From assembly GCF_003018235.1 (NCBI RefSeq), contig NZ_CP027437.1: a stretch of DNA of 64,000 bases; one strand, given 5' to 3'. Position 1 is the stretch's first letter. Each line of letters starts with the position of its first letter. A model generated the notes under the pieces. It was not told the origin of the DNA. It saw only the letters and a program-made list of their open reading frames with translations, and made no database searches. The translations under genes and the position numbers were made by a program. This DNA is from Escherichia coli. GTDB lineage: Bacteria; Pseudomonadota; Gammaproteobacteria; Enterobacterales; Enterobacteriaceae. Positions 10,152 to 52,167 of this stretch are shown piece by piece.

Positions 10152-10198
10152 AATGGCGCGCCCTGCAGGATTCGAACCTGCGGCCCACGACTTAGAAG
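10152..10198. other. Prophage attachment-site copy: 47 bp identical to the 3' portion of argU (partial tRNA, not a functional gene)
   Basis: Exact 47-nt match to 52089-52135 (reverse complement of the tRNA-Arg 3' end including acceptor stem and T-arm); sequence diverges on both sides. Confidence 0.85.
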
Positions 10199-10620
10199 TT
10201 CCTAGAACGACATTTTAAGTCAACAAATTACCGCGCCATCTCTGCGCTCACACGTCCCACTACCTCAAAACATGTAAAGCCTTGCAAGCCATTGTGAGGC
10301 CTTATGTGTCTCAGTTTTGTCCCTCTTTTTTGTACTAAAAAACATAGTAATTGAGGATAAACCTCATGCTATTTTCGCTTATATGCCTCTAAAGGCATGG
10401 CACTTAAATAGATAAAAGCACCACAAAAGCATAAAAAACCACACAGTAAAACCGCAATATGAAACAATAACAGATAATTAAACCAAAAACAGATAGCGCA
10501 TTGTGATAATCATTCAATACTAAACAAAATATAAACAGTGGAGCAATATGTAATTGACTCATTAAGTTAGATATAAAAAATACATATTCAATCATTAAAA
10601 CGATTGAATGGAGAACTTTT

Positions 10621-11574
10621 ATGCGGGCGAAACTTCTGGGAATAGTCCTGACAACCCCTATTGCGATCAGCTCTTTTGCTTCTACCGAGACTATATCGTT
10701 TACTCCTGACAACATAAATGCGGACATTAGTCTTGGAACTCTGAGCGGAAAAACAAAAGAGCGCGTTTATCTAGCTGAAGAAGGAGGCCGAAAAGTCAGT
10801 CAACTCGACTGGAAATTCAATAACGCTGCAATTATTAAAGGTGCAATTAATTGGGATTTGATGCCCCAGATATCTATTGGGGCTGCGGGCTGGACTACTC
10901 TCGGCAGCCGGGGTGGCAATATGGTCGATCAGGACTGGATGGATTCCAGTAACCCCGGAACCTGGACAGATGAAAGTAGGCACCCTGATACACAACTCAA
11001 TTATGCCAACGAATTTGATCTGAATATCAAAGGCTGGCTCCTCAACGAACCCAATTACCGCCTGGGACTCATGGCCGGATATCAGGAAAGCCGTTATAGC
11101 TTTACAGCCAGAGGTGGTTCCTATATCTACAGTTCTGAGGAGGGATTCAGAGATGATATCGGCTCCTTCCCGAATGGAGAAAGAGCAATCGGCTACAAAC
11201 AACGTTTTAAAATGCCCTACATTGGCTTGACTGGAAGTTATCGTTATGAAGATTTTGAACTCGGTGGCACATTTAAATACAGCGGCTGGGTGGAATCATC
11301 TGATAACGATGAACACTATGACCCGGGAAAAAGAATCACTTATCGCAGTAAGGTCAAAGACCAAAATTACTATTCTGTTGCAGTCAATGCAGGTTATTAC
11401 GTAACACCTAACGCAAAAGTTTATGTTGAAGGCGCATGGAATCGGGTTACGAATAAAAAAGGTAATACTTCACTTTATGATCACAATGATAACACTTCAG
11501 ACTACAGCAAAAATGGTGCAGGCATAGAAAACTATAACTTCATCACTACTGCTGGTCTTAAGTACACCTTTTAA
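10621..11574 (+). CDS. ompT: Outer-membrane protease OmpT (omptin family)
   Basis: 317-aa ORF with signal peptide and beta-barrel C-terminal Phe; matches OmpT. Confidence 0.9.
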   Translation: MRAKLLGIVLTTPIAISSFASTETISFTPDNINADISLGTLSGKTKERVYLAEEGGRKVSQLDWKFNNAAIIKGAINWDLMPQISIGAAGWTTLGSRGGNMVDQDWMDSSNPGTWTDESRHPDTQLNYANEFDLNIKGWLLNEPNYRLGLMAGYQESRYSFTARGGSYIYSSEEGFRDDIGSFPNGERAIGYKQRFKMPYIGLTGSYRYEDFELGGTFKYSGWVESSDNDEHYDPGKRITYRSKVKDQNYYSVAVNAGYYVTPNAKVYVEGAWNRVTNKKGNTSLYDHNDNTSDYSKNGAGIENYNFITTAGLKYTF

Positions 11575-11823
11575 GAACGCCAACTAAAATTTCCCCGAGG
11601 TGAAAATCGCCCCGGGGAATAACTAGCCATATCAATGTAACAATTAACCCTTAAAATAAACCCAGAAGGTTATTAACTGAATCACATAGAAAACCATCAA
11701 TTATAGTGTGTATAAAATGGGCGACAGCAACCCAATTACAAATTAATGGTTCCAGAATATCACATCAAAAAACACGCTATATAATATTATAATTAATATG
11801 TAGACAACTTGTAATAAACATTA

Positions 11824-12573
11824 TCAGTCAATTGTTTTGTTTATTCCATCTGTGACGCCGATTACTTTCTCAAAATAATGAGATGGCGTGACACCATAAT
11901 AATCTTTAAATGCACATATGAAATATGAAGTACTGTTATAGCCACATTTCTGGGCTACAACATTGATAGAATAAGAGTTTGAAGTTATGAGTTTTTTTGC
12001 ATACCTCATCCTAGTGTCTCTCAATACTTCAGTAAATGACGTTCCTTCATCCCTTAATCTTTTTTTTATTAAACTTTCACTCGTATAAATCAATTCCGCA
12101 ATATCTTTTAAATGCCATTGCCGCTCAATATTAAAACTGATTATTCCAGTAATTTTACAGGTAAATGTATTTATATTTGTTAGTATAAATGAATTTACAC
12201 TTTCGCGTTTTTTGAACATGGCAAGTAAGGATATACATAGTCGTTCTTTTAACCAAAGGGAGTGTGAGTCTGCTATTTTAATCCCTTCAAACAGAGAAAA
12301 AACAAGCGATAATGGAGGTTCCTCTTCAGCAATATAGTCATTCTTATCAAGAGTAAATTTGCCAGGCAGCTCATTATTCACGTCGATAAAAAAGGATAAA
12401 CATGTTTTCTTATCTATATCAACAATTCTTAGTTTAGAGGGGCATACTGGTAACTCCCTTCTAATTTTGTCGCTTACAATAAACAATGAATTTTTTTTGA
12501 ACGAGATAACTCTCCTGTTTATAATTAAATCAAATGATTGACAGATGAAAACTACGGAGCAAACATAATCCAT
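11824..12573 (-). CDS. appY: AraC-family transcriptional activator AppY
   Basis: 249-aa ORF with C-terminal AraC HTH (…[26 protein letters not shown]); AT-rich gene as in K-12. Confidence 0.85.
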
Positions 12574-13234
12574 CTTGCACCTATCATAAAATTAAAACAA
12601 GTTGATAATAGTCAAATAACAACCAATTAAATACACAATCATAATCAGGATGATGTGCATTTATATTTTTATACACAAAATTATAGTTTGCAAATTTTAA
12701 TAAATTTCATTTAAGATTAAATTATTATATGTATATTATTTTTTATTCTAACGTATTTCAAAGTTACATTTTTCAACGCTTACTATGCTTTTTATTAACA
12801 TAAACTCACTACAACGCACCTGAAACCTCTTGCTATATATATGTCAACCGTTTGAATTTAAAATAAAAAGAGTATCATTTTTACTTGCATTTCTTATCAA
12901 GTCACATTCAACAACAGTAACAAAACATTATTAGAACCATTCAATTAACAAAAAACCAACATCCGGATTGCTTAACTTTTCTTTATTAAACGATATTGAA
13001 AATCAATTGATAAAATACATCTAAACAACTTTTTGGGGCGCAAAAGCATAACATCAAACCAACAAATAACACACCGAAAAAACTCACAATTAATAACCTA
13101 TGATATACATACTGTTTATTATGGTTGAATAAGCCACTCGATATCTGGCGTAACGGAAGTGTCTACACTGTTCAGCAGCACCCGATACTTCCATGCCTCT
13201 AGCAACAATCTTTCCTCCTCCGTTGTAATTTCCA

Positions 13235-13378
13235 GATCTACAGCATGCTGAAGTGGCGCAATATGCTCACTCTCATTTTACCCTCAAAAATCCGGTCACA
13301 TTCTGCACAGTTCAACGCATTACGTTGTAGATCGGTGTTCTGGTCATTTGTTGATACACGTACATAGCCAATAAGCAT
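13235..13378 (-). pseudogene. Truncated Gin/Pin/Cin-family serine DNA invertase (only about 30 N-terminal residues conserved, then frame decays to a stop)
   Basis: Minus-strand translation from ATG at 13378: MLIGYVRVSTNDQNTDLQRNAL… (canonical invertase N-terminus with catalytic Ser region) followed by unrelated residues and stop after 47 codons; no ORF of invertase length in 12.6-13.4 kb. Confidence 0.7.
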
Positions 13379-13439: not shown

Positions 13440-13460
13440 AAACGTTGGTTTGGGAGAAGG
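13440..13460. repeat. Left inverted repeat / recombination site of invertible tail-fibre segment (gix/pix-like)
   Basis: AAACGTTGGTTTGGGAGAAGG; reverse complement partner at 15279-15300 with 15-nt perfect core TTGGTTTGGGAGAAG. Confidence 0.75.
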
Positions 13461-13926
13461 CTCTGCATTACCTGTTGGTGTGCCTGTTCCATGGCCTTCA
13501 GCCACACCGCCAACAGGCTGGCTGAAATGCAACGGTGCGGCATTTTCTGCTGAAGAATACCCGGAACTGGCAAAGGCTTATCCAACAAATAAATTACCTG
13601 ATTTACGCGGTGAGTTTATTCGTGGCTGGGATGACGGGCGCGGTATTGATGCAGGACGTGTTTTATTGAGTATTCAGGCCGGAATGCTGGAAAAGCACCG
13701 TCATCCTGTTGTCGCCAACGATGAGTATGACTCAAAAGAGGAATGGGAACTAGCGACAATCTTCAGAAGAGCATATAAGCAAGGCAGGGGGCTTGATGCT
13801 GCCGCTGCCGGAGGGAGTCTGATCCCATCACCGACACTTCATTCACGAGGGAGTATCGGTAATACTGGCGGGAGTGAAACCCGTCCACGAAATATTGCAT
13901 TTAACTATATCGTGAGGGCTGCATAA
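13441..13926 (+). CDS. Alternative tail-fibre C-terminal (variable) segment, currently in the non-expressed orientation
   Basis: Contains the conserved side-tail-fibre C-terminal motif (PWPSATPPTGWLKCNGAAF…YPELAKAYP…LPDLRGEFIRGWDDGRGID); begins exactly at the inverted repeat; the ORF-track start at 13390 is read-through. Confidence 0.7.
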   Translation, partial: NVGLGEGSALPVGVPVPWPSATPPTGWLKCNGAAFSAEEYPELAKAYPTNKLPDLRGEFIRGWDDGRGIDAGRVLLSIQAGMLEKHRHPVVANDEYDSKEEWELATIFRRAYKQGRGLDAAAAGGSLIPSPTLHSRGSIGNTGGSETRPRNIAFNYIVRAA

Positions 13927-14528
13927 TGGATAACGCCGTATTAAATAGCGAGCTTATTACCACGAAGGCGGGGAATATTACCGTCTATAACTATGATGGT
14001 GAGACGCGGGAATATATTTCTGCATCAACTGAATATCTTGCAGTGGGTGTCGGTATTCCAGCATATTCCTGTTTAGACGCTCCTGGTACATCTAAGGCTG
14101 GTTATACAATTTGCCGTTCTGTGGATTTAAAATCATGGGAATATGTGTCAGACCATCGCGGTGAAATCGTCTATAACACCGAAACGGGAGATGCCAAAGA
14201 AATCACAGCACTAGGCGACTATCCCGAAAATACAACCACTATCGCCCCGTTAACGCCATACGATAAATGGGATGGTGAAAAATGGGTGACAGATACTGAG
14301 GCACAACACGGTGCCGCAGTAGAAGCGGCAGAAGCACAGCGCCAGTCACTGATTGATGCAGCAATGGCTTCCATCAGTCTGATTCAACTGAAATTGCAGG
14401 CCGGACGTAAACCGACGCAGGCAGAAACAACCAGACTTAACGCTGTGCTGGATTACATTGACGCGGTGACGGCAACAGATACCAGCACCGCGCCGGATGT
14501 CATCTGGCCTGAACTGCCGGAGGCGTAG
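13926..14528 (+). CDS. Tail fibre assembly protein (Tfa family), partner of the alternative fibre segment
   Basis: 200-aa ORF, start overlaps fibre stop; C-terminal Tfa-type motif (…DYIDAV…TSTAPDVIWPELP). Confidence 0.75.
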   Translation: MDNAVLNSELITTKAGNITVYNYDGETREYISASTEYLAVGVGIPAYSCLDAPGTSKAGYTICRSVDLKSWEYVSDHRGEIVYNTETGDAKEITALGDYPENTTTIAPLTPYDKWDGEKWVTDTEAQHGAAVEAAEAQRQSLIDAAMASISLIQLKLQAGRKPTQAETTRLNAVLDYIDAVTATDTSTAPDVIWPELPEA

Positions 14529-14943
14529 GCCATTCAATATCTGGCGCACTGGAGGTATCAACCAGCTCCAGTGCATCCAGATAATCCAGCCACAAATTAT
14601 ATTGCGCCAGTTCCTCACCTTTCAGACGACCAATAGCGGCTTTACCGGGCCATTGTTTACTGTTCATGTATTCGTTGGCCTGGTTAATCAATAATTGCCT
14701 CTCTGATTCGGCCTGTTCAATAAGTTCCTCATGTGATGGTGGAGGTATTTCAGCCCATGTGGGAAAACCATTTTCCCCTGCAACTCGGATTTTCCCTTGT
14801 GGCGGTTCCGCCATATATTTTACAGAAATATCATCAGGAATATCTAATGCATTAGCAGGCCATGTTCCATTTACTTCATAAGTGTTTTTTAAATTAACAG
14901 CATAAAAAGCATTTTCCGAAGGGGAATAAATATATTGATTCAT
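14500..14943 (-). CDS. Tail fibre assembly protein (Tfa family), partner of the expressed fibre
   Basis: 147-aa ORF with the same C-terminal Tfa motif (…DYLDALELVDTSSAPDIEWPTPP); convergent with the other tfa. Confidence 0.75.
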   Translation of the reverse strand: MNQYIYSPSENAFYAVNLKNTYEVNGTWPANALDIPDDISVKYMAEPPQGKIRVAGENGFPTWAEIPPPSHEELIEQAESERQLLINQANEYMNSKQWPGKAAIGRLKGEELAQYNLWLDYLDALELVDTSSAPDIEWPTPPAVQAR

Positions 14944-14944
14944 A

Positions 14945-15583
14945 TTATCTTCCTATTGCGATAATCATAGTTCCATACAAACCATTTCCGGTTGATACTT
15001 TTAAGGTTACTGATGTCCTTGTTGTCGTGTACCCCATAAGTTTAAAGGTCGGAGCAGCCGTTAATGTGCCATCTGACCATAAGGCACTAACAGCCAGTGC
15101 GCCTGAAGGAAATGCAATAGGGAAATTACCTGTAGTTCCGTTAGTGTCCGCCCCATAAACATTCATCGAAAACATTTGGACAATATGACCACTTGGTAAC
15201 TGAAACCAGTTTTTGCCAGATGGAAATGCAGACATATCTGGTATCTGATTTTCCCCTGTTCCCACATTCCGTTTTGCCGCTTCTCCCAAACCAAGGTTTT
15301 CGAGAGCCGTTTTCACCGTGCCGTCCGATTTGATATCGCCAAACGGATTTTTGCGGCTTAACAGCAGCGCACGAAGCGCGGTAAGCAGCTGGTCATGCCG
15401 CCCCTTCTCCAGGCTGGCACCGGATGCCTCCACCACGCTGCAGAGTTCTTCCTGCAACATGTCAAAGTAGTCATCATCCAGATCGGTGGCAGGTGTGCCG
15501 GTCTGGGGGTTACCACGGGTAAAACCGTTCTTACCCGCGCCGAACTTATCCTTCTGCGCGGTTTTCGTGTCTATACGATGCAT
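14945..15583 (-). CDS. Tail fibre protein: constant N-terminal region (to about residue 100) fused to the currently expressed variable C-terminal segment
   Basis: 212-aa ORF directly downstream of baseplate genes; the right inverted repeat lies inside it at codons encoding [13 protein letters not shown]. Confidence 0.75.
15279..15300. repeat. Right inverted repeat / recombination site of invertible tail-fibre segment
   Basis: Reverse complement AAAACCTTGGTTTGGGAGAAGC pairs with 13440-13460. Confidence 0.75.
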
Positions 15584-15586
15584 GGA

Positions 15587-16171
15587 TTACTCCGGATATT
15601 TAAAAATTACGTAGGTATGCGAAGGGCAGAGTTTGTTAAGCACACACTCGACAACGGTGTCGCCCCAGATACGCAGTGCGGAATCACAGGGATCACCACA
15701 TGTCATCCAGGTGGTGTTGGTGGCAGCTGGCATGTTGACCTGCCAGTAATACCGCCATTCCGGCGCATTCACCGCGTCAGTACAGGCCGATGAGCAGGTG
15801 AAGGTGCTTTTGTCGTATCGCGTGATGGTGGCATCTGGTCTGCCCAGGGCAGCAAGCTGTGCAAGATAAAAATCCTCGTTGATGCCGCCCGCCAGGTTAA
15901 CCTTCGCATCCAGCCGTTGCTGACGCTGGCGAAGGGTCTGTGTCCCTGCGGGAATACATTCATCCGGCAGGCCGCACAGACGCTCCCAGCGGTTTATCAG
16001 TTCGGTGGTGGTGCGCGGATCCAGCTCCCGCATCAGGGCATCCGCACGCTGATGAACACGGGTTAATGACGGTGCTGCACCGGCAATCGCCGGATCGCTG
16101 GCTGACCACGCCGGACCGGGCGGCAACAGTGCTGACAACAGACGGATGTAATCATCGTTTGTCACGTCCAT
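15587..16171 (-). CDS. Mu gp48-like tail/baseplate protein (YmfQ-like)
   Basis: 194-aa ORF between baseplate J and tail fibre; order matches the Mu/e14 baseplate cluster. Confidence 0.65.
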
Positions 16172-17220
16172 GAAATCGTCCCCAGAACCGCCAGTTCGTT
16201 TTTCGCAATGGAGATATTGTCTGCCGGTGCAAGCAACTGATGGCTGTATTCCCCGTTCGCACCGGAAATCGCTTCACTGATACGCGACACCTTCAGCTCT
16301 CCCTGCGGATAACCATCACGCAGCAGGAACGAACGCAACTCCGCGGTAATGGCAGCCCGTATTTCTGGTGTGTCCGGCGTCACGCGGATATGAAAATCCA
16401 CTTTATGCGCCACCGGCCTGAATACATACAAATCAGAGCCTGCCACCGGGGCCAGTGGCTCAATGTGTTGTCTTGCAGCCGTTTCCGTTGATTCTTCCGG
16501 AATGGGATTAATCAGGTCACTGCTGGCAATCATCACACCGACAGTCCCCGTTCCCATCCAGTGGCGGTATGTCCATGCACGGGTAATGCCTGGCACTTCT
16601 TTAGCCCAGACGACATAGTCCCCGTCAGCCCCGCCCTGAGGCGTCCAGTAATACCGCTCAATGACGCGGGCGCGCCACGTTTCCAGCTCTTCAGTATCAA
16701 ATCCGCCTGTAAGGGTGTCAGCCACACCGGAAGACGGCAGACCATTCACCGGTGTGACCAGGATTAATGCCGTACCGTCGTCAGCGTTACCGACCGCACC
16801 TGCACTTGAGCAGGCGATCGGCACGCGCAGGACTCCACCTGAGCTGGTTGCATCAGAAGTTGCCGTGTACTGCACCAGGTCATCGCGCTGAATAACACTC
16901 CCGGCGGTCACCTTCAGGCCATCGCTGACACCTTCCCAGCGCATATACCCGCTGGCAGACGTGGCCCCCTTGCGCGGACACCGTTTCATCGCAGCATGTC
17001 GCGCCAGCCAGGACTCATCGCACAGGTCAGGCAGCATGTTCATTGCCAGATAATCGATGTAACCGTAAACCGTATGCAGCGCCGCCGCATACACCTTTGC
17101 CCGCACGTCTTCATCCATGCGCCGGAGCGTGTCGCTGACGTCCAGCCTGGCGAATAAATCGTTACGGAGCATACTGATATTTTCTGCCAGCGTCGGGCGC
17201 TGAAATTCACTGTCCGCCAT
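16162..17220 (-). CDS. Baseplate J-like protein (Mu gp47 family)
   Basis: 352-aa ORF in conserved position; overlapping starts and stops with neighbours. Confidence 0.7.
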
Positions 17221-17635
17221 GCGTTATCGCACTCCACAGATCATCAAAAGAAATCATTACCGGTCCGTCACGACGCCAGAGAGTGATACTGTTACCCAGT
17301 TCATTAATCCCGGTGCGGCGGATATCCAGATCAATACGGGACACCACGCCGTCATCAATCATCCATTGCAGGCATTCGCGGATATACCCCCTTACCGTCT
17401 GCACCAGTTGATTGGTCAGTTTGCTGCGCTGAAGCAGCCACAGTCGGGAGCCGTAACGGTCATTCTGTACCGCAGGCCAGGTATCCCCCCACCATCCCAT
17501 CGGGACGTCGGCATTGTCATCAGGTTCCGCCCGCCGCCAGGTAAACAGGGAAATCACCACGGCGCGGGTCAGCGGATCCAGCGGTGCGCTGGCGCAGGTG
17601 CGTTTACCGTTCACCGTCAGCCACACTTCCATCAT
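17207..17635 (-). CDS. Baseplate assembly protein (Mu gp46 family)
   Basis: 142-aa ORF, conserved position in Mu-like tail cluster. Confidence 0.6.
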   Translation of the reverse strand: MMEVWLTVNGKRTCASAPLDPLTRAVVISLFTWRRAEPDDNADVPMGWWGDTWPAVQNDRYGSRLWLLQRSKLTNQLVQTVRGYIRECLQWMIDDGVVSRIDLDIRRTGINELGNSITLWRRDGPVMISFDDLWSAITHGGQ

Positions 17636-18183
17636 GCCTCCATCGCTTTATCAGGTTTGTCGGTGTTACTGCCCTGACCGTTCTCTCTGTGACGATGCCC
17701 GTTATAGGCAAGCCGCATCGCTGACATGGTGGTGCCGCCGGAGTCGCACAGGTCTTTCACCTGTCCGGTCACTTCCAGGTCCATTTCAAAACGTGCCTTA
17801 GGCGCATTGTGAAACGTGATCGTTTTACCTGCACCGTCCACCACGATCCCCTCCCGGGTCAGCGTCACGGACTGCCCCTGATCGTCATAGACAGCCACCT
17901 CACCCGTCTGCAGCCCTTTCAGGCGGTAGCGACGGTCCGACACCGTAACAACCACCGCATGAGAACGGTCGCCATCCGGAAACAACACCACCGCTTCCGC
18001 ACCGCTGTTTGCCCTTGCGGTAAAACCGTAGGGTTCAAGATGTTCAACCCCGGCTTTGGGTTCACCGGCAATCAGGGACACATCCACGGTCTGACATTTC
18101 GTGGCGGCACTGATGCTTTTCACCACTGCCCGCCCAATCAGGCCGAGGAGTTGTCGCTGCATGGCTTCAATCGTCCTCATCAA
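17632..18183 (-). CDS. Baseplate spike/assembly protein (Mu gp45 / gpV-like)
   Basis: 183-aa ORF, conserved position; OB-fold-like N-terminus typical of spike proteins. Confidence 0.6.
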   Translation of the reverse strand: MMRTIEAMQRQLLGLIGRAVVKSISAATKCQTVDVSLIAGEPKAGVEHLEPYGFTARANSGAEAVVLFPDGDRSHAVVVTVSDRRYRLKGLQTGEVAVYDDQGQSVTLTREGIVVDGAGKTITFHNAPKARFEMDLEVTGQVKDLCDSGGTTMSAMRLAYNGHRHRENGQGSNTDKPDKAMEA

Positions 18184-19259
18184 AACGGGTCCTCCTGTAC
18201 TCTGGCTTTTTTCTTTTTCCGCGCGCCGGGGGCTTCGGGTTCAGGCAGATAAGCATCAGGTGGGCCGACACGGATTTCCGTCAGGGTGCCATTCTGGTCC
18301 TGAGTAAACGTGACTTCCGAGACAAGCAGTTCGGTATTGTCGAAACCACAGACCGGATCGAAGACAATCACCCGCTGGTTGGGCTGCCACAGCGTACCGT
18401 TACCCTGTCGCCAGCCCTGCACCACATAGGTGGTTTCATCCGTCCGCGCCGCCCGTTGTCGGGCTTCAAAGTCAGCACGCGCAATACAGCCTGCCCCCGT
18501 GGCCTGCCCTGTCTGCCTGATATACATCGGACGGTAACGGGCAATAAATGCGTCCTCTGTGCGGGCCCGCAGCGCGGTGGTGGTGGCCTCACCGAAATCA
18601 TCGTCGTTTCCGGCACGCTGCCCCGCCACCTGGTAAACTGAAAACCGCTCCCGGATACTCTTCTCCGTATCACAGGAAAGGATGTTTTCCCCAAGTACCA
18701 GCGCGGTATGTGCCCGCGTTGAGCCAATACCGCCAATCACCAGCCTGCCGTGCGGGTCGTCATAAGCCAGCGCCTGCTGCTGACCGAGTATTTTGTTGAT
18801 TACCTCAATCACCGTTTCACCGTGATCAGGCTGGACATCAGGAATAACACCCGACGGCGCACCGCTGTTCACCACCTCAATGCCGAAAGGCGCAGCAAGC
18901 GCCTGCGCAATCTGTACCAGCGATCGTCCGTTAAACTGTGTCGGTTCGGCTGCACAGTCAATCAGGTCAGCGGTCAGACTACGCCCAGCAATACCGGTGC
19001 TGACCGAACGGGCATCGTAACGAACGGGAGTCGCCTCCACCCAGCCGGTGATCACCAGCTCATCACCAATCAGCACCTCCACTTTTGAACCGTTTTTAAT
19101 GCGCGGCTGAAGCGTGGTGATACCCTCATCTCCCGGCCACTGGCGGGTGATCTCCACACTGAAATCCCGCGCCAGTCGTTCAACACCGGCACCGATGCGC
19201 ACCGATGTCCAGCCATTCCACTCCCGGCCATTTACCCGTAGCGTGACGTTATCGTTCAT
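18180..19259 (-). CDS. Tail/baseplate hub protein (Mu gp44 / P2 gpD-like)
   Basis: 359-aa ORF following the DNA circulation gene as in Mu. Confidence 0.6.
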   Translation of the reverse strand: MNDNVTLRVNGREWNGWTSVRIGAGVERLARDFSVEITRQWPGDEGITTLQPRIKNGSKVEVLIGDELVITGWVEATPVRYDARSVSTGIAGRSLTADLIDCAAEPTQFNGRSLVQIAQALAAPFGIEVVNSGAPSGVIPDVQPDHGETVIEVINKILGQQQALAYDDPHGRLVIGGIGSTRAHTALVLGENILSCDTEKSIRERFSVYQVAGQRAGNDDDFGEATTTALRARTEDAFIARYRPMYIRQTGQATGAGCIARADFEARQRAARTDETTYVVQGWRQGNGTLWQPNQRVIVFDPVCGFDNTELLVSEVTFTQDQNGTLTEIRVGPPDAYLPEPEAPGARKKKKARVQEDPF

Positions 19260-20632: not shown

Positions 20633-20656
20633 AGACTGACCTCAAAAAGGACTGCG

Positions 20657-22564: not shown

Positions 22565-22648
22565 GCTTCATCTCCTCATTTATACGGACGGCCTCTGCCT
22601 CCAGATCAGCAAAGTGGGAAATAGCCGTCCGGCGAAGTTCAAGGGGGT

Positions 22649-41697: not shown

Positions 41698-41764
41698 AGC
41701 ATATTCTTTCCTGTTCAAACTGGAGAGAATTGTACTACAGTTTGAACTCAACTCACCTGTTTCA

Positions 41765-43781: not shown

Positions 43782-44317
43782 ATTGCCCCCAGCATGGTGG
43801 TGACCATTGCCATCAGTGGACCAGCCAGATCCGGGTCCACTCGAAACATCGACACAATGCCTTCACTCATCTCCTTCAGTTTCTGGTGGCGTGGTGCGTT
43901 GAGAATGACCGCCTGCTTTGCCTCACTGAGTTCCTTTTCCATTTCAGCCAGCCGAGCCATGAAGCTATCCTGCTCAACTAGGTAACCGCGATATTCCAGC
44001 GGTAGTACCGCCAGAATTGCCGGGGTCAGTTCACGCACGTTATTTCTGTATTTTTCAGAATCGAATTTGTTATCGAGGAAGCGGAACAGCTTCTGGCGTG
44101 CACGGCTGACATCATCAGGGAAATCGATGGTGCCGCCGCCCTGCTCCCGATACTCATTCACAATGAGTGCGGCAACGACATCCTGATTATCTACAGCCGA
44201 CCAGGCGCGGACGGCATCACGGATTTTTTCGTGGCCTGGAGCTTGTTTTGTTTGAGAACGATTTATCACCGCAGTCGGGCTAAATCCGCTAGTCTGTTGG
44301 TATGTAAGTGGTTGCAT
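43778..44317 (-). CDS. CII-position regulatory protein (YdaT-like family suspected)
   Basis: 179-aa ORF directly downstream of the cro-like gene and upstream of O. Confidence 0.45.
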   Translation of the reverse strand: MQPLTYQQTSGFSPTAVINRSQTKQAPGHEKIRDAVRAWSAVDNQDVVAALIVNEYREQGGGTIDFPDDVSRARQKLFRFLDNKFDSEKYRNNVRELTPAILAVLPLEYRGYLVEQDSFMARLAEMEKELSEAKQAVILNAPRHQKLKEMSEGIVSMFRVDPDLAGPLMAMVTTMLGAI

Positions 44318-44386
44318 AATTGACTCCTTTAGTTTGAATTGACTGTTAAGTTGATTGCTTATTGTTAAAGAGCGTGAAATGGAAAT

Positions 44387-44617
44387 TTAAGCTGCGTTCT
44401 TTTCAGTGTGTGGAAACAACTTCGGAAGATCCGGGCGAATCTGGTATGCCTTCACTACTCCACCAGTAGCCGTAACAATGCTGCCGACATGTTCAGGGGA
44501 TACCTTTGCTTTGTTGTGAAGCCACTTATAGACGGCCTGCTGTGAAACTTCGCAGGCAGCGCCTAGTTTCTTTTGTGAACCAACGATATTGATCGCTGTT
44601 TTGATGGCTGGGTTCAT
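44387..44617 (-). CDS. Cro-like HTH DNA-binding protein (YdaS-like)
   Basis: 76-aa ORF divergent from cI with HTH (QKKLGAACEVSQQAVYKW). Confidence 0.7.
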   Translation of the reverse strand: MNPAIKTAINIVGSQKKLGAACEVSQQAVYKWLHNKAKVSPEHVGSIVTATGGVVKAYQIRPDLPKLFPHTEKNAA

Positions 44618-44721
44618 AACAACCTCCGTGGTTAATTTGAATCAAGATTAAAACCATGGTTGTTTTTAGTCAACAACCATTTTCGTTTGATGAAATAAAA
44701 CCTTGGTTGTACATTTGGACT
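44618..44721. promoter_or_regulatory. Divergent immunity promoter/operator region (OR-like) with three related operator sites
   Basis: AAAACCATGGTTGTTTT (about 44650-44666), CAACAACCATTTT (about 44671-44683), AAAACCTTGGTTGTACA (about 44697-44713) share the CAACCA/TGGTTG half-site. Confidence 0.6.
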
Positions 44722-45411
44722 ATGAAAACAACACTCTCAGAAAGACTTAAAGAAGCCAGATTAGCGCGAGGCCTTACACAAAAGGCGCTTGGGGATTTGG
44801 TCGGGGTTAGCCAAGCAGCTATTCAGAAAATCGAAACAGGGAAAGCTAACCAAACAACTAAAATCGTGGAGATCGCGAACGCTTTGGGTGTGCGCGCAGA
44901 ATGGTTATCTTCTGGCGTTGGAAATATGTCAGACAGTACAGTGCAACCAATACAAACAACTGTCAGCCATTCCAAATACTTTAAGATTGACGTTCTTGAT
45001 ATCGAAGTGAGTGCCGGGCCGGGAGTCATCAACCGTGAGTTTGTAGAAGTTCTACGCTCGGTTGAGTACTCGTTTGACGATGCTCGTCACATGTTCGATG
45101 GTAGGAAGGCAGAAAATATCCGCATCATTAACGTACGCGGTGACAGCATGTCAGGAACGATTGAACCTGGTGATCTTCTATTCGTTGATATCACGGTTAA
45201 ATCTTTCGACGGTGATGGTATCTATGCGTTTCTGTACGACGACACAGCCCATGTAAAGCGCCTGCAAATGATGAAGGATAAGCTGCTGGTTATCTCTGAT
45301 AACAAAAGCTACTCACCGTGGGACCCGATCGAGAAAGATGAGATGAACCGGGTATTTATCTTCGGGAAAGTTATTGGGAGCATGCCGCAGACGTATAGGA
45401 AGCATGGATAG
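44722..45411 (+). CDS. CI-like repressor (N-terminal HTH, C-terminal LexA/S24 autopeptidase domain)
   Basis: HTH (LTQKALGDLVGVSQAAIQKIETG) and S24 catalytic region (GDSMSG…, …HVKRL); start at MKTTLSERL chosen over the upstream in-frame TTG/ATG. Confidence 0.85.
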   Translation: MKTTLSERLKEARLARGLTQKALGDLVGVSQAAIQKIETGKANQTTKIVEIANALGVRAEWLSSGVGNMSDSTVQPIQTTVSHSKYFKIDVLDIEVSAGPGVINREFVEVLRSVEYSFDDARHMFDGRKAENIRIINVRGDSMSGTIEPGDLLFVDITVKSFDGDGIYAFLYDDTAHVKRLQMMKDKLLVISDNKSYSPWDPIEKDEMNRVFIFGKVIGSMPQTYRKHG

Positions 45412-45479: not shown

Positions 45480-46553
45480 ATGGAGAACTTAATGGATACT
45501 TTAAAATATGAGAAATTCTCTGATTTTGATCACAATGACCCATTTTTTGACTCTTTAAAAAAAGATTATAAAGAGTTTCCTCTTTGGTTAGAAAAAAAAG
45601 CCAGAGAAGGAGAATCAGCTTATGTGCTCTATGATGACAAGCATAAAATCGAAGGTTTTATGTATCTAAAAGAAAATGATGATGCAAATGACATTAATCC
45701 AGCGCTCCCACCAGGACGTCATCTAAAGATAGGAACATTCAAATTTGAATCTAAAGGCACCCTTCGCGGACAACGATTTCTAAAAAAAGCGTTTGACCAT
45801 GCATTTTCATCAAAATCTGATGATATTTATGTTACTGTTTTCGACAAACACGTCCATCTAATAAAACTTTTCCAAACGTACGGATTTTACATTCATGGTG
45901 AAAAAGAAACACATAACGGGAAAGAGTTTGTATATGCGAGGTCTTTGCATGAGCCTTATGGTGATATTTTATTAGATTACCCTCGAATAATGACATCAAG
46001 GGCCAACAAATATTTACTGGCGATTTATCCCGAATATCACACTAGACTATTCCCTGATTCAAAACTTGTAAATGAATCACCAGATATTGTCAAAGATATA
46101 TCCCATGCTAACAGCATTCATAAAATTTACATATGTGGAATGCGTTCTGTGATGGGAATGAAAAGAGGAGATATCATTGTCATCTATAGAACCGGAGACA
46201 AAAAAGGGCCAGCTCGCTATCGTTCTGTAGCCAGTACATTATGTGTAGTTGAGAGCGTAAAAAATATTTCTGAATTTTTAAGCGAAGATAGTTTTGTAGA
46301 CTATTGTATTCGTTTTAGCGTATTTTCTGAAGATGAACTCAGAAAAATCTATAAAGAACGTCGATACCCTTTCATTATAAGATTCACATACAATCTGTCT
46401 TTGCCAAAGAGACCCAATCGTGCTATTTTAATAGATCATGTGGGGCTAAATGGTTCGCGTGCATTCCGATGGAGTCACTTTAAACTCACAAATGAGCAGT
46501 TCTTAAAGATCATCGAGTTAGGCAAGATAAATGAAAGTTTTATTATCCATTAA
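45480..46553 (+). CDS. Hypothetical two-domain protein: N-terminal GNAT-like acyltransferase fold, C-terminal PUA/ASCH/EVE-like domain (357 aa)
   Basis: Pattern resembling GNAT motifs (…IGTFKFESKGTLRGQRFLKKAFDHAF…LIKLFQTYGFYIHG…); C-terminal half has a KRGDIIVIYRTGD segment reminiscent of PUA-like beta barrels; strongly AT-rich. Confidence 0.5.
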   Translation: MENLMDTLKYEKFSDFDHNDPFFDSLKKDYKEFPLWLEKKAREGESAYVLYDDKHKIEGFMYLKENDDANDINPALPPGRHLKIGTFKFESKGTLRGQRFLKKAFDHAFSSKSDDIYVTVFDKHVHLIKLFQTYGFYIHGEKETHNGKEFVYARSLHEPYGDILLDYPRIMTSRANKYLLAIYPEYHTRLFPDSKLVNESPDIVKDISHANSIHKIYICGMRSVMGMKRGDIIVIYRTGDKKGPARYRSVASTLCVVESVKNISEFLSEDSFVDYCIRFSVFSEDELRKIYKERRYPFIIRFTYNLSLPKRPNRAILIDHVGLNGSRAFRWSHFKLTNEQFLKIIELGKINESFIIH

Positions 46554-46908
46554 GCCTGAGTTTGCAGAAAAAATATTGAACGGAACAAAGCGGTTCGAGT
46601 TTCGTAAAGGTATATTCAAAAATCCGCAAATTAGCACCGTTGTTATTTATGCCACGATGCCATTAGGTAAAGTTGTTGGTCAATTCCGTATTGAATCAAT
46701 ACTAAGTGACGAACCGGAATCTCTTTGGAAAAAGACGGAAAAACACGCAGGTATTTCTAAGCAATTTTATGACTCATATTATTCAGGTAGAGAAAAGGCC
46801 TACGCAATAAAAATTGGTGAAGTGGAAAGATATAAAGAACCAATTCCTATCTCTGCTCTAGGTAGTAATATTAAGCCACCACAATCATATCTTTACCTAC
46901 CTGCGTAA
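46531..46908 (+). CDS. ASCH-domain protein (125 aa)
   Basis: MKVLLSIKPEFAEKILNGTKRFEFRK… is the characteristic ASCH N-terminal beta strand/helix signature; overlaps the preceding gene by 23 nt. Confidence 0.6.
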   Translation: MKVLLSIKPEFAEKILNGTKRFEFRKGIFKNPQISTVVIYATMPLGKVVGQFRIESILSDEPESLWKKTEKHAGISKQFYDSYYSGREKAYAIKIGEVERYKEPIPISALGSNIKPPQSYLYLPA

Positions 46909-47039
46909 GAATCCCGGCCACCGTGCCGGGTTTTCTTTTATCCCCTCCCCTCATCACATATACCGTTCAAAAAACCACCACAATCTCCCTTCAGTTATCG
47001 CTATGCGATGCAAGTCACAAAATAAACCCATCCTAAATA

Positions 47040-47184: not shown

Positions 47185-47595
47185 TTGAATTTCAGCAGGC
47201 TCCGGGGAGTGCGAGGGGTGAAGCGGACGCGTGAACGTCGGTGTGACCAGCTGAAATCAACTCAACACTTCATACCTCAGTCGCTTCAACGAGGCGGCTT
47301 AGTTATGACAACCGGCGGCCATCCACCGCCTGAATACGCGCAGAAGTCTCCATATGTTCAGCAGCCCAGCTTACGGGCAGGAGTTTTTATGGTTCATCAA
47401 CATTATGGAACGCAGACCGTTAATCGAGGTGCGGTCATGCCAGGAATGCTGGTCAAACACAAAGATGGTACCTGGACTGCATCAGCTAATTTACGCGGAC
47501 GGCTTTATCTGCATCGCGGCATCGAGCGCACTTATACCCGTGATTTGCTCGTGGAAGTTTTTCTCGACGGACGCGGTAACGGCCTGAATCACTAA
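47185..47595 (+). CDS. Hypothetical early-left protein with N-terminal arginine-rich motif (possible N/Nun-like antiterminator); start uncertain
   Basis: N-terminus [15 protein letters not shown] resembles an ARM; first ORF downstream of the PL-like region. Confidence 0.3.
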
Positions 47596-47670
47596 TCCCC
47601 TTTCCTGTTTTCCTAATCAGCCTGGCATTTCGCGGGCGATATTTTCACAGCCATTTTCAGGAGGTCAGCC

Positions 47671-47967
47671 ATGAACGCTTATTACATTCAGGATCGTCTT
47701 GAGGCTCAGAGCTGGGCGCGTCACTACCAGCAGATCGCCCGTGAAGAGAAAGAGGCAGAACTGGCAGACGACATGGAAAAAGGCCTGCCCCAGCACCTGT
47801 TTGAATCGCTATGCATCGATCATTTGCAACGCCACGGGGCCAGCAAAAAAGCCATTACCCGTGCGTTTGATGACGATGTTGAGTTTCAGGAGCGCATGGC
47901 AGAACACATCCAGTACATGGTTGAAACCATTGCTCACCACCAGGTTGATATTGATTCAGAGGTATAA
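47671..47967 (+). CDS. gam: Gam (RecBCD inhibitor), short form
   Basis: 98-aa ORF starting [21 protein letters not shown]…, near-identical to lambda GamS; AGGAGG ribosome-binding site upstream. Confidence 0.9.
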
Positions 47968-47972
47968 AACGG

Positions 47973-48758
47973 ATGAGTACAGCACTCGCAACGCTGGCAG
48001 GGAAGCTGGCTGAACGTGTCGGCATGGATTCTGTCGACCCACAGGAACTGATCACCACTCTTCGCCAGACGGCATTTAAAGGTGATGCCAGCGATGCGCA
48101 GTTCATCGCATTACTGATCGTTGCCAACCAGTACGGCCTTAATCCATGGACGAAAGAAATTTACGCCTTTCCTGATAAGCAGAATGGCATCGTTCCGGTG
48201 GTGGGCGTTGATGGCTGGTCCCGCATCATCAATGAAAACCAGCAGTTTGATGGCATGGACTTTGAGCAGGACAACGAATCCTGTACATGCCGGATTTACC
48301 GCAAGGACCGCAATCATCCGATCTGCGTTACCGAGTGGATGGATGAATGCCGCCGCGAACCATTCAAAACCCGCGAAGGCAGAGAAATTACGGGGCCGTG
48401 GCAGTCGCATCCCAAACGGATGTTACGGCATAAAGCCATGATTCAGTGTGCCCGTCTGGCCTTCGGATTTGCTGGTATCTATGACAAGGATGAAGCCGAG
48501 CGCATTGTCGAAAATACTGCATACACTGCAGAACGTCAGCCGGAACGCGACATCACTCCGGTTAACGATGAAACCATGCAGGAGATTAACACTCTGCTGA
48601 TCGCCCTGGATAAAACATGGGATGACGACTTATTGCCGCTCTGTTCCCAGATATTTCGCCGCGACATTCGTGCATCGTCAGAACTGACACAGGCCGAAGC
48701 AGTGAAAGCTCTTGGATTCCTGAAACAGAAAGCCACTGAGCAGAAGGTGGCAGCATGA
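47973..48758 (+). CDS. bet: Bet single-strand annealing recombinase (RecT family)
   Basis: 261-aa ORF near-identical to lambda Bet as recalled. Confidence 0.93.
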
Positions 48759-49435
48759 CACCGTACATTATCCTGCAGCGTACCGGGATCGACGTGAGAG
48801 CTGTCGAACAGGGGGATGATGCATGGCACAAATTACGGCTCGGCGTCATCACCGCTTCAGAAGTTCACAACGTGATAGCAAAGCCCCGCTCAGGAAAGAA
48901 GTGGCCTGACATGAAAATGTCCTACTTCCACACCCTGCTGGCTGAGGTTTGCACCGGTGTGGCTCCGGAAGTTAATGCTAAGGCGCTGGCCTGGGGAAAA
49001 CAGTACGAGAACGACGCCAGAACCCTGTTTGAATTCACTTCCGGCGTGAATGTTACTGAATCCCCGATCATCTATCGCGACGAAAGTATGCGCACCGCCT
49101 GCTCTCCAGATGGTTTATGCAGTGACGGCAACGGCCTTGAACTGAAATGCCCGTTTACCTCCCGGGATTTCATGAAATTCCGGCTCGGTGGTTTTGAGGC
49201 AATAAAATCGGCTTACATGGCCCAGGTGCAGTACAGCATGTGGGTGACGCGAAAAGATGCCTGGTACTTTGCCAACTATGACCCGCGCATGAAGCGTGAA
49301 GGCCTGCATTATGTCGTGATTGAGCGGGATGAAAAGTACATAGCGAGTTTTGACGAGATGGTGCCGGAGTTCATCGAAAAAATGGACGAGGCACTGGCTG
49401 AAATTGGTTTTGTATTTGGGGAGCAATGGCGATGA
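48755..49435 (+). CDS. exo: Exo 5'-3' exonuclease (lambda Exo)
   Basis: 226-aa ORF near-identical to lambda Exo as recalled; overlaps bet stop. Confidence 0.93.
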
Positions 49436-49586
49436 CGCATCCTCACGATAATATCCGGGTAGGCGCGATCGCTTTCGTCTACTCCGTTACAAAGCGAGGC
49501 TGGGTATTTCCCGGCCTTTCTGTTATCAGAAATCCACTGAAAGCACAGCGGCTGGCTGAGAAGATAAATAATAAACGGGAGGCGGT

Positions 49587-49778
49587 ATGCACAAAGCATC
49601 TCCTGTTGAGTTAAGAACGAGTATTGAGATGGCACATAGCCTTGCTCAAATTGGAGTCAGGTTTGTGCCAATACCAGTAGAAACAGACGAAGAATTTCAT
49701 ACGTTAGCCACATCCCTTTCACAAAAGCTGGAAATGATGGTGGCGAAAGCAGAAGCAGATGAGAGAGACCAGGTATGA
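49587..49778 (+). CDS. Small hypothetical protein (63 aa)
   Basis: ORF in the exo-xis intergenic gene block. Confidence 0.3.
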   Translation: MHKASPVELRTSIEMAHSLAQIGVRFVPIPVETDEEFHTLATSLSQKLEMMVAKAEADERDQV

Positions 49779-49788
49779 CAACCACTGA

Positions 49789-50070
49789 ATGCATTTTTCT
49801 GGCAGCGGGCTTCATATTCTGTGTGCTTATGCTTGCCGACATGGGGCTTGTTCAATGACACCTCAGCAAGAAAACGCCCTTCGCAGCATTGCCCGTCAGG
49901 CTAATTCTGAAATCAAAAAAGCCAGACAGCATTTTCCGGATAAAAACGTCGATGACATTTGCCGTAGCGTACTAAAGAAGCACCGCGAAACGGTAACGCT
50001 GATGGGATTCACACCGACTCATTTAAGCCTGGCGATCGGCATGTTGAACGGCGTCTTTAAGGAACGGTGA
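49789..50070 (+). CDS. Hypothetical protein (93 aa)
   Basis: ORF in the exo-xis block. Confidence 0.3.
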   Translation: MHFSGSGLHILCAYACRHGACSMTPQQENALRSIARQANSEIKKARQHFPDKNVDDICRSVLKKHRETVTLMGFTPTHLSLAIGMLNGVFKER

Positions 50071-50168
50071 ACATGAAAAGCAAAATCATCAGGGAGCTAC
50101 AGGCTCCTTTTTTATTATTCGCATTTACCCTCAAGCGTATTAACCAACAATTCAGGGATTAATGAAAG

Positions 50169-50387
50169 ATGGCAGACATCATTGATTCAGCATCAGAAAT
50201 CGAAGAATTACAGCGCAATACAGCAATAAAAATGCGTCGTCTGAACTACCAGACTGTATCCGCAACTCATTGTTGTGAGTGTGGCGATCCGATAGATGAG
50301 CGAAGACGCCTGGCTGTTCAGGGTTGTCGGACTTGTGCTAGTTGCCAGGAGGAGATCGAACTTAAGAACAAACAATGGGGACTGTGA
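50169..50387 (+). CDS. TraR/DksA-family C4 zinc-finger protein
   Basis: 72-aa ORF with CCECGDPI…CRTCASCQ four-Cys motif. Confidence 0.7.
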   Translation: MADIIDSASEIEELQRNTAIKMRRLNYQTVSATHCCECGDPIDERRRLAVQGCRTCASCQEEIELKNKQWGL

Positions 50388-50434
50388 TGGCCTCAAAGCA
50401 GCAAATTTCAACATCGTCCAACTGAGGTGTAAAA

Positions 50435-50713
50435 ATGTTCAGAATCATTTTTCCTAACACCTGGTACGTCGACCACCACGGCACTCCCTGCAAAATCCTG
50501 CGTTCTACCCACAACAAAGTTCACTACATCCGAAAAGGCAGAACATGTATCGCCAGCATGTTCCGCTTTAATCATGACTTTGAACCTGTGAATAAAGCTG
50601 ATGCAGATCGGATAGCAGAAGAGATCGAAACGGCAGAACACATTAAGAAGTTACGTGACATGCGTTCAAAAAGCAGAGGTAACCATGGAATCATACAGCC
50701 TCACACTCGATGA
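50435..50713 (+). CDS. Hypothetical protein (92 aa)
   Basis: ORF upstream of xis. Confidence 0.3.
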   Translation: MFRIIFPNTWYVDHHGTPCKILRSTHNKVHYIRKGRTCIASMFRFNHDFEPVNKADADRIAEEIETAEHIKKLRDMRSKSRGNHGIIQPHTR

Positions 50714-51056
50714 GGCCTGTCAGTTTCTTAAGATATCCAGACCAACCGCCACCAACTGGATACGAACAGGCCGCCTACAGGCAACACGTAAAGATCCAAC
50801 CAAGTCAAAATCTCCTTACCTCACAACACGGCAAGCCTGCATTGCGGCGCTTCAGTCTCCGCTGCATACTGTCCAGGTGAGCGCGGGTGATGGCATAACA
50901 GAGGAAAGAAAATGTCACTCTTCCGCAGAAATGAAATATGGTATGCCTCGTATTCGCTCCCGGGCGGGAAACGAATTAAGGAATCTCTTGGCACAAAGGA
51001 CAAGCGGCAAGCTCAGGAGTTGCACGACAAGCGAAAAGCAGAACTCTGGCGAGTAG
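50685..51056 (+). CDS. xis: Putative excisionase (Xis), overlapping int start; C-terminal extent uncertain
   Basis: HTH-like N-terminus ([26 protein letters not shown]) immediately upstream of and overlapping int. Confidence 0.5.
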
Positions 51057-52075
51057 AAAAGCTAGGGGATTTACCTGATGTCACTTTTGAAGAGGCCTGC
51101 CTAAGATGGCTTGAGGAAAAAGCTGATAAAAAATCTCTCGATTCAGATAAAAGCCGGATTGAGTTCTGGCTTGAACATTTTGAGGGTATAAGGCTTAAAG
51201 ATATCTCGGAGGCAAAGATTTACTCTGCTGTAAGCAGAATGCATAACAGAAAGACGAAAGAAATATGGAAACAGAAAGTTCAGGCCGCCATCAGGAAAGG
51301 TAAAGAACCGCCTGTTTATGAACCAAAGCCAGTATCAACTCAGACAAAGGCAAAGCATCTTGCCATGATAAAGGCCATTCTCCGTGCTGCAGAACGCGAC
51401 TGGAAGTGGCTGGAAAAAGCGCCTGTCATCAAGATACCAGCGGTCAGAAACAAGCGAGTCAGATGGCTGGAAAAGGAGGAAGCAAAACGCCTTATTGATG
51501 AGTGCCCCGAACCACTGAAATCTGTCGTCAAGTTTGCGCTGGCAACTGGTCTGAGAAAGTCGAACATCATAAATCTGGAATGGCAACAAATCGACATGCA
51601 GCGACGAGTTGCCTGGGTGAATCCAGAAGAGAGCAAATCAAACCGCGCCATTGGTGTGGCGCTGAACGATACCGCCTGTAAAGTGTTGCGTGATCAAATA
51701 GGCAAGCATCACAAATGGGTGTTTGTACATACCAAGGCGGCTAAGCGAGCAGATGGAACATCAACGCCTGCGGTCAGGAAGATGCGCATCGACAGCAAGA
51801 CATCATGGCTATCAGCTTGTCGTCGTGCAGGAATTGAAGATTTCCGTTTCCATGACCTCAGACACACCTGGGCAAGCTGGCTGATTCAGTCAGGCGTCCC
51901 ATTATCAGTGCTTCAGGAAATGGGCGGATGGGAGTCCATAGAAATGGTTCGTAGGTATGCTCACCTTGCGCCTAATCATTTGACAGAGCATGCGAGGAAA
52001 ATAGACGACATTTTTGGTGATAATGTCCCAAATATGTCCCACTCTGGAATTATGGAGGATATAAAGAAGGCGTAA
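50912..52075 (+). CDS. int: Tyrosine integrase (lambda Int family; DLP12 IntD-like)
   Basis: 387-aa ORF with C-terminal catalytic signature (…[15 protein letters not shown]…VRRYAHL) adjacent to argU. Confidence 0.92.
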
Positions 52076-52090
52076 CTGATTGAATTGTAA

Positions 52091-52167
52091 TGGCGCGCCC
52101 TGCAGGATTCGAACCTGCGGCCCACGACTTAGAAGGTCGTTGCTCTATCCAACTGAGCTAAGGGCGC
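52091..52167 (-). tRNA. argU: tRNA-Arg (anticodon UCU)
   Basis: Reverse complement reads GCGCCCTTAGCTCAGTTGGATAGAGCAACGACCTTCTAAGTCGTGGGCCGCAGGTTCGAATCCTGCAGGGCGCGCCA: cloverleaf with TCT anticodon and CCA end. Confidence 0.93.

Follow-up and report, generated by a model that had tools for sequence, protein, structure and literature searches.

Positions 10152-52135 of a 64,000-nucleotide stretch of Escherichia coli contig NZ_CP027437.1 (the window) very probably hold, as judged from the sequence, a complete-looking hybrid temperate prophage of 41,984 bp that was inserted by the tyrosine integrase IntD into the 3' end of argU. The element would be a DLP12-family genome whose late region was replaced by one of the SfV type, with the left crossover at 13271-13284 and the right one in the HNH-lysis-Q area. 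One parent would come from the DLP12 family, lambdoid argU integrators that include PhiR34_1 and ev243 and of which K-12 DLP12 is a deleted relic. It would have given the attachment (att) site, int, xis, the Red genes, cI/cro, O/P, the nin region, and the ompT-appY cargo. The other parent would belong to the SfV-like family (SfI, SfII, SfIV, SfV, and vB_EcoM-720R4, with K-12 e14 as a relic) and would have given cos, HNH, terminase, the HK97-family head, the Mu-type contractile tail, and the invertible fiber segment.

The boundaries are set by an exact direct repeat of the argU 3' end. The repeat has a length of 47 bp, comprises the last 45 nucleotides (nt) of the tRNA 3' end plus 2 further bases, and occurs in two copies, the distance between which is 41,937 bp. 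A 31-nt portion of the repeat was found in only 2 places in the window, even with 3 mismatches allowed, and in 0 of 100 shuffles. The tRNA-Arg(UCU) at 52091-52167 on the minus strand is intact and is the only tRNA in the window (ARAGORN; Rfam, 72 bits). The left flank cusS-nfrB-nfrA-ybcH-envY and the right flank argU-fimZ-sfmF are those of DLP12 in K-12, and in the K-12 record the annotated DLP12 runs from inside argU to a point that maps on the left repeat. This 47-bp repeat was previously described for DLP12 (PMC6379469). A preliminary description of this DNA had proposed a complete-looking prophage of ~42 kb between 47-bp argU repeats at the DLP12 position, and the exact repeat and the K-12 flanks bear this out. 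PHROG matches assigned phage functions to essentially every open reading frame (ORF) between the repeats. The attachment and excision features are as follows.

10152-10198, no strand: left 47-bp att core, an exact duplicate of the argU 3' end that matches the annotated DLP12 end in K-12
10199-10343, no strand: P' arm, an attachment-site arm of ~145 bp with matches to the SfIV attP arm, the ev243 attP, and metagenome contig OLEA01004031.1
50655-51056, plus strand: excisionase gene xis (PHROG; 98% protein identity to Xis of PhiR34_1)
50912-52075, plus strand: integrase gene intD, overlapping xis (PHROG; 100% protein identity to PhiR34_1, 99% to K-12)
52089-52135, minus strand: right att core, inside the intact argU tRNA-Arg(UCU)

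The excised form expected from these sites was compared with known phages. The isolated phage ev243 (NC_049955, genus Nesevirus) carries tfa, a hydrolase gene, ompT, the arm, the core, and int at 25469-28068, and it matches 11620-10152 of the window at 97.7% and 52138-49980 at 99.6%. As ompT adjoins the same attP in ev243, the junction predicted for the excised form (int side-core-P' arm-ompT) exists in a real phage. By the ev243 arrangement, ompT is genuine phage cargo and not a mere neighbor of a dead prophage. The P' arm falls within the 97.7% match to the ev243 attP; from ~45 nt past the core, ~80 nt of it are nearly the same as in the SfIV attP arm that adjoins the thrW-type core. The distal end of PhiR34_1 was also considered as the source of the P' arm and was rejected, as it has nothing in common with the arm in the window; ev243 matched instead.

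The integrity of the genes was assessed by comparing 62 ORF translations with the ORFs of eight records, namely SfIV, 720R4, PhiR34_1, lambda, three E. coli prophages, and the K-12 relics. Genes with a counterpart aligned end to end at 90-100% identity; the exceptions were the naturally variable fiber and Tfa genes. No frameshift or truncation was found in essential genes on comparison with isolated phages, and the sole damaged gene is the fiber invertase. The modules had been described as intact apart from the invertase, with an alignment for frameshifts and truncations named as the check, and this comparison agrees with that view. At 42.0 kb, the element falls in the size span of recorded SfV-like phages (35-43.5 kb).

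A continuous SfV-type late region, from the tail fibers to HNH, extends over 15233-32989. Nucleotide identity to SfIV is 96.4% over the 17.4 kb of 15233-32579, to vB_EcoM-720R4 97-98%, and to the surviving pieces of K-12 e14 96-98%. These identities, together with the PHROG matches, substantiate the earlier assignment of an HK97-like packaging and head module, a Mu/e14-type contractile tail, and invertible fibers. When the join of the SfIV genome ends was aligned to the window, it matched without gaps at ~32579/32580, with one mismatch 5 nt away; the other 7 differences in the 260-nt alignment fall in the coding part of HNH. By this alignment, the cos site common to SfI, SfII, SfIV, and SfV is conserved here. 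Packaging of SfIV is of the cos type (PMC3851460). The features of this region are listed below.

15587-20632, minus strand: baseplate and DNA-circulation genes of the Mu gp48/47/46/45/44/43 type (PHROG baseplate; 97-100% protein identity at full length to SfIV and 720R4)
20657-24821, minus strand: tape measure, tail assembly protein, tail tube, and tail sheath (PHROG; 98-100% protein identity at full length to SfIV, 720R4, and strain a7)
24984-26955, minus strand: tail terminator, neck, head-closure, and adaptor genes (PHROG connector; full length compared with relatives)
27005-32521, minus strand: HK97-family major capsid, prohead protease, portal, YmfR, large terminase, and P27-family small terminase (PHROG; 98-100% protein identity at full length; RefSeq product names in homologous prophages)
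32570-32590, no strand: predicted cos cleavage region, cut at ~32579/32580 (aligned SfIV genome-end join)
32638-32988, minus strand: terminase-associated HNH endonuclease (PHROG HNH; 95-96% protein identity to relatives)

On the corresponding genes of a near-identical locus (L020), the Pfam domains Phage_Mu_Gp45, GP46, Baseplate_J, Phage_Mu_Gp48, and DNA_circ_N were found. The tape measure and tail assembly stretch at 20572-22935 is a separate mosaic patch: the 635-amino acid (aa) tape measure is common to the window, SfIV, and strain a7, and the prophages that are otherwise closest, in S1bESBLb and in a related assembly (L015), have an unrelated 611-aa version (24% protein identity).

In the right half of the element (Q, nin, emrE, ybcK, ren-P-O, cro/cI, kil-gam-bet-exo, xis, and intD), identity to DLP12-family phages, PhiR34_1 and ev243 among them, is 96-99%. 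The early region is 98-99% identical to PhiR34_1 and 95.8-99% identical to the parts of DLP12 that K-12 has retained. PhiR34_1 has 50817-52092 and the entire early region in common with the window, but its late genes are lambda-type. The alignment of the whole prophage to DLP12, e14, and lambda that had been suggested as a check was informative, as both K-12 relics map on the element as sets of deletions and lambda matches from orf61 to gam at 97%. K-12 DLP12 maps on the right half and the far left end as ordered deletions, its remnants being int-xis, the 3' end of exo, the stretch from the 3' end of P to ybcK, ybcN through ylcG, and tfa through ompT. K-12 e14 maps on the late region likewise; its remnants run from the 3' end of the terminase gene to the 5' end of the portal gene, from the 3' end of gp47 to the fiber, and from Tfa to the 5' end of pin. 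The early features are as follows.

41765-44617, minus strand: ren, P, O, a YdaT/CII-position protein, and cro (PHROG; 98-100% protein identity to PhiR34_1)
44656-45411, plus strand: CI-type repressor, S24 peptidase family (PHROG_4, PHROG_6201; 99% protein identity to PhiR34_1 cI)
45480-46908, plus strand: PDC-M11A and PDC-M11B, an adjacent candidate defense pair (PADLOC; A 2e-133, near full length; B 7e-52)
47389-50713, plus strand: kil, gam, bet, exo, orf60a/63/61-like genes, a TraR-like gene, and a DUF4222 gene (PHROG; 97.1% nucleotide identity to lambda 30418-33193)

Protein identity to lambda is 100% for Bet, 98% for Exo, and 97% for Gam, and P and ren have ~95% nucleotide identity to lambda. 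The immunity region had been called lambda-type. That stands for the layout, which is lambdoid, but neither cI nor cro gave a nucleotide or protein match to lambda, and no N antiterminator was detected. Judged by these comparisons, the repressor/immunity region is heteroimmune to lambda.

Inside the left repeat, the first 3 kb are filled by ompT and appY, and next to them lies the joint with the tail fiber region.

10621-11574, plus strand: ompT, outer-membrane protease, 317 aa (99% protein identity to K-12 OmpT, full length)
11824-12573, minus strand: appY, AraC-family regulator, 249 aa (99% protein identity to K-12 AppY, full length)
13133-13271, minus strand: 3' remnant of a lambda-type tfa, 139 nt (80-81% nucleotide identity to lambda, PhiR34_1, and K-12 tfaD)
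13284-13378, minus strand: 5' remnant of a Pin/Gin-family fiber invertase gene, 95 nt (PHROG DNA invertase match over only ~35 residues)
13440-15299, no strand: invertible tail-fiber segment, 1.86 kb, with the current and an alternative fiber C-terminus, each accompanied by a Tfa gene (20-nt inverted repeats at 13440-13459 and 15280-15299)
13460-13926, plus strand: alternative fiber C-terminus (PHROG fiber match, in the invertible segment)
13926-14528, plus strand: alternative Tfa (PHROG Tfa match, in the invertible segment)
14500-14943, minus strand: current Tfa (PHROG Tfa match, in the invertible segment)
14945-15583, minus strand: tail fiber in the current orientation, 212 aa (PHROG tail fiber; 209-216 aa in relatives)

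OmpT is a surface protease linked to virulence. The ORFs at the left end were also examined for gtrABC, which the word "glucosyltransferase" in the phage matches had led us to expect; they proved to be ompT and appY, and the match to the Sf phages is to the attP arm only. At the joint, homology to e14 pinE and to the intact 184-aa invertases of relatives stops at 13284, which leaves ~32 codons of the invertase gene 12 bases away from the tfa remnant. The invertase, earlier termed decayed, is indeed not intact, but it was truncated to its first 95 nt rather than decayed. The joint would be an illegitimate fusion of these 95 nt to the 3' end of a lambda-type tfa. In silico inversion of 13440-15299 yielded an in-frame fiber of 256 aa that has 96 N-terminal residues in common with the current one. 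On this evidence, the fiber switch is structurally whole but its enzyme is lost; because the fusion removed the invertase, the fiber would be locked in its present orientation. Compared with switches of the Gin/Pin/Cin type, the in-frame crossover sites with alternative C-termini and Tfa are present, whereas the adjacent intact serine invertase is absent.

To place the combination among other genomes, 5,426 complete E. coli genomes were searched. None of them carries 80% of either half in one place, which indicates that the exact combination is rare. The early/late joint (31800-37100) was covered to at least 80% in 5 of these genomes, and the best match, in a prophage at the lambda attachment site, had 100% coverage and 98.4% identity. 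The left joint was absent from the 5,426 genomes. Draft assemblies such as GCA_013606115.1 do have it, with 99.1% identity over 10.8 kb, together with an intact envY and a different tape measure. Sanji and CRE1493 were considered as evidence of argU occupancy, as their matches appeared to cover the left flank and the late region. They were discarded because only the insertion sequence (IS) of the IS21 family in the left flank is shared, at another locus.

If the element is active, SOS induction would lead to self-cleavage of CI, Int and Xis would recombine the two 47-bp cores, and the resulting circle would replicate from O/P. Cleavage at cos near 32579 would yield genomes that are packaged in myovirus particles, and these would take ompT, appY, emrE, and PDC-M11 to new hosts. 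Inducibility is plausible because the genes compared and the cis sites examined (att cores, P' arm, and cos) match isolated phages. We consider the chance that the element yields infectious particles to be slightly better than even, judging from its genes and sites. The further proposal, that it is a live, transmissible myovirus version of DLP12 that is spreading ompT, appY, emrE, and the PDC-M11 pair, is put forward tentatively, with a probability somewhat below even. If true, it would mean that the DLP12 backbone was viable after its non-contractile lambda tail was swapped for an SfV-type contractile tail.

Several observations weigh against an active phage and could be accommodated by a grounded prophage, in which the ORFs look intact but no excision takes place or no infectious particles are formed, and which was kept as a vertically inherited island for ompT, appY, emrE, and the defense genes, like DLP12 in K-12. 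Elements at the DLP12 position are very common, occurring in 74% of 638 genomes, and are usually defective (PMC6379469). Recombination left a scar at the left joint and destroyed the invertase; this scar may have arisen in a resident prophage and not in a viable phage, and its presence at 99.1% identity in other assemblies fits vertical inheritance as well as spread. The attP junction gave zero matches in IMG/VR. A search of JGI metagenomes for the same junction returned one short contig, OLEA01004031.1 (1,776 bp), in which a P' arm 100% identical to 10343-10152, the core, and int plus xis at 98.2% lie in the attP configuration. The contig ends where different phages with this arm diverge; it is short, may be an assembler join across the 47-bp repeat, and carries little weight. 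Among k-mers common to both arms, the only candidate for an integrase arm-type site was one 10-mer (ACGACATTTT), which is not beyond chance. For the N antiterminator, no PHROG match and no conserved ORF were found in the element. However, the isolated relative PhiR34_1, with its near-identical early region, also has no annotated N, so the absence of N is not evidence of decay. A grounded element is also hard to reconcile with zero frameshifts or truncations in ~60 genes that are 96-100% identical to isolated phages, since decay is normally quick to show, as in K-12 DLP12 and e14, and with an att core, both arms, Int, and Xis that match phage ev243, and with a conserved cos. The probability of a grounded element is put well short of even.

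A different division of the locus was also weighed, in which the ompT-appY block (10199-13271) is an older DLP12-type leftover and the moving phage ends near 13280. The sequence 9729-13271 is common, at 98% identity, to E. coli strains that have lambda-type tails after appY, the GC content falls to 37-40% across the ompT-appY block, and the tfa remnant at its end is of the older tail type. However, no third att copy was found inside the element with 3 mismatches allowed, which leaves no inner boundary for a smaller unit, and ev243 packages ompT directly beside the same attP. SfV-like phages, moreover, hold gtrABC in the same slot, between the conserved arm and the tail fibers (PMC3851460). Two side-by-side elements are thus regarded as very improbable.

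The preferred reading, a single DLP12-family prophage with an SfV-type late region, was set against the known members of both groups. For SfI, SfII, SfIV, and SfV, a lambdoid organization with an HK97-family head, cos packaging, a contractile tail, and conversion genes beside int-attP has been described (PMC3851460). Over the late region, from the fiber N-terminus to HNH, nucleotide identity to SfIV/SfI/SfII/SfV, 720R4, and e14 is 96-98%, and the proteins are of equal length and 97-100% identical. The element further resembles the Sf phages in its cos junction, its invertible fiber segment, an integrase of the same family with an overlapping xis (SfIV), its P' arm, and the position of its cargo between arm and fibers. 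It differs in that the Sf phages integrate at thrW and this element at argU, in that the Sf cargo is gtrABC and here ompT-appY, and in that the Sf early region is of the CPS-53/e14 type (ymfL, yfdN, etc.) and here of the lambda/DLP12 type (Red, O/P, and ybcN-rusA). Unlike in the Sf group, the invertase is truncated. Of the traits of SfV-like phages, the head and packaging genes, the contractile tail genes, and cos were found in the sequence, whereas thrW and gtr/oac beside int-attP were not. The SfV genome paper by Allison and colleagues (2002) reportedly gives the same description of a lambdoid phage with a contractile tail.

With the DLP12 family (K-12 DLP12, PhiR34_1, and ev243), the element has in common the 47-bp argU core, intD at 99-100% protein identity, xis, the Red genes, cI/cro, O/P/ren, emrE, ybcK, and ybcN-ninE-ybcO-rusA (95.8-97% nucleotide identity to K-12). 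OmpT is encoded beside the att site as in ev243 and K-12, and appY follows as in K-12. In contrast, DLP12-family phages have lambda-type Nu1/A packaging and a non-contractile tail, a module of which only the 139-nt tfa remnant is present here. From K-12 DLP12, exo to P, cI/cro, and almost all late genes are missing, and IS3 and IS5 are present. PhiR34_1 has a different P' side without ompT; a literature search on the PhiR phage series found nothing. The Q and lysis genes also differ from the DLP12 family, and nmpC and bor are absent here.

The S1bESBLb prophage, at the lambda att site, has the same hybrid design and the same early/late joint, with ~27.5 kb at 96-98% identity and HNH-lysis-Q-rusA at 98.4%. 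It differs in its lambda-type int/xis and its location at bio/ybhC, in Kiwa in place of emrE/ybcK, in the lack of PDC-M11, in its tape measure and fibers, and in a terminal cargo of acyltransferases instead of ompT/appY. Lambda itself matches from orf61 to gam, at O (C-terminus)-P-ren with ~95% nucleotide identity, in the endolysin, and in gene order; none of its structural genes matched, nor did cI, cro, N, Q, int, att, or the operators.

Lambdoid early genes with a contractile tail had been singled out as a notable mosaic. This claim does not hold, as the combination with an HK97-family head corresponds to the published description of SfV-like phages (PMC3851460) and the same early/late joint occurs in other E. 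coli, e.g. in S1bESBLb; the combination defines a group that is already known. Particular to this element are an early region of the DLP12/lambda type, integration at argU, the cargo of ompT and appY, the loss of the invertase, and the presence of PDC-M11. The cargo genes ompT, appY, emrE, and PDC-M11 had been missed in the preliminary description. The element gives a near-complete picture of DLP12 and e14 before their decay, since each maps on it as a deletion set, and it exemplifies how lambdoid families exchange entire modules, here at a joint that was mapped. If active, it would be a vehicle for ompT, appY, and emrE, and it places a candidate defense pair, PDC-M11, in the slot classically held by rexAB. 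Its broader importance is modest, as SfV-like lambdoid myoviruses and ompT-carrying IntD phages are already in the databases.

The PDC-M11 pair, a PADLOC candidate defense system, sits between the cI stop and the leftward early genes. PDC-M11A has 357 aa, and a Pfam search of it returned zero domains; PDC-M11B has 125 aa and an ASCH domain. The 1,377 bp with the pair are absent at exactly this point from PhiR34_1, LR-71-1, and S1bESBLb, and a terminator-like hairpin at 46913-46930 follows the pair. Downstream, the ORF that ends with Kil (47185-47390) has an Arg-rich upstream stretch that recalls the RNA-binding motif of N proteins; this stretch is probably non-coding, because that part is not open in relatives.

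Between the late and early regions lie the lysis genes, Q, and the nin region.

33606-35018, minus strand: lysis cassette (PHROG; translations; 99-100% protein identity to S1bESBLb)
33766-34158, minus strand: Rz i-spanin, with an overlapping Rz1 o-spanin frame that has an LLTGC lipobox
34142-34618, minus strand: endolysin (90% protein and 82% nucleotide identity to lambda R)
34605-34922, minus strand: holin (PHROG)
35909-36598, minus strand: Q-type late antiterminator (PHROG_304; 100% protein identity to S1bESBLb)
36732-37999, minus strand: rusA, ybcO, ninE, and ybcN, a DLP12-type nin region (PHROG; 95.8% nucleotide identity to K-12 DLP12; 97-98% protein identity)
38192-41751, minus strand: nin-region cargo, comprising a function-unassigned 260-aa protein (phrog_6544), a protein with a P22AR C-terminal domain, ybcK, and emrE (ybcK and emrE 97-99% protein identity to K-12)

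Near-identity to the lambda/DLP12 versions had been noted for Gam/Bet/Exo, RusA, and the R endolysin. It was confirmed for Gam/Bet/Exo (97-100%) and for RusA (97% at the protein level), but endolysin R is merely similar. Compared with the DLP12-family prophage LR-71-1, Q is only 76% and the endolysin 92% identical, and the closest match is S1bESBLb at 99-100%. By these identities, Q and the lysis genes form a third block that is more mosaic. A possible spanin frameshift, suggested by two ORFs that overlap after the endolysin, was considered; these ORFs are a normal overlapping Rz/Rz1 pair, 99-100% identical to S1bESBLb, and the lysis cassette is intact.

In lambdoid phages, a short late leader transcript sits at the post-Q position. 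Here, a match to the Rfam family of the Hfq-binding small RNA isrJ was found at 35820-35893 on the minus strand, 16 nt downstream of Q (64.9 bits against a gathering score of 37). The Rfam search across the element returned argU and this isrJ-family match and nothing else. In the nin-region cargo, ybcK encodes a large serine recombinase of 508 aa, located mid-phage alongside the tyrosine integrase. At the position of K-12 ybcL-ybcM, the P22AR C-terminal domain protein and the 260-aa protein are encoded. Outside the prophage, an IS21-family (IS100-like) element of 1,952 bp with istA and istB interrupts envY at 7777-9728. The matches to other E. coli that flank it overlap by 7 bp, a target duplication, and envY is uninterrupted in the related assembly L015.

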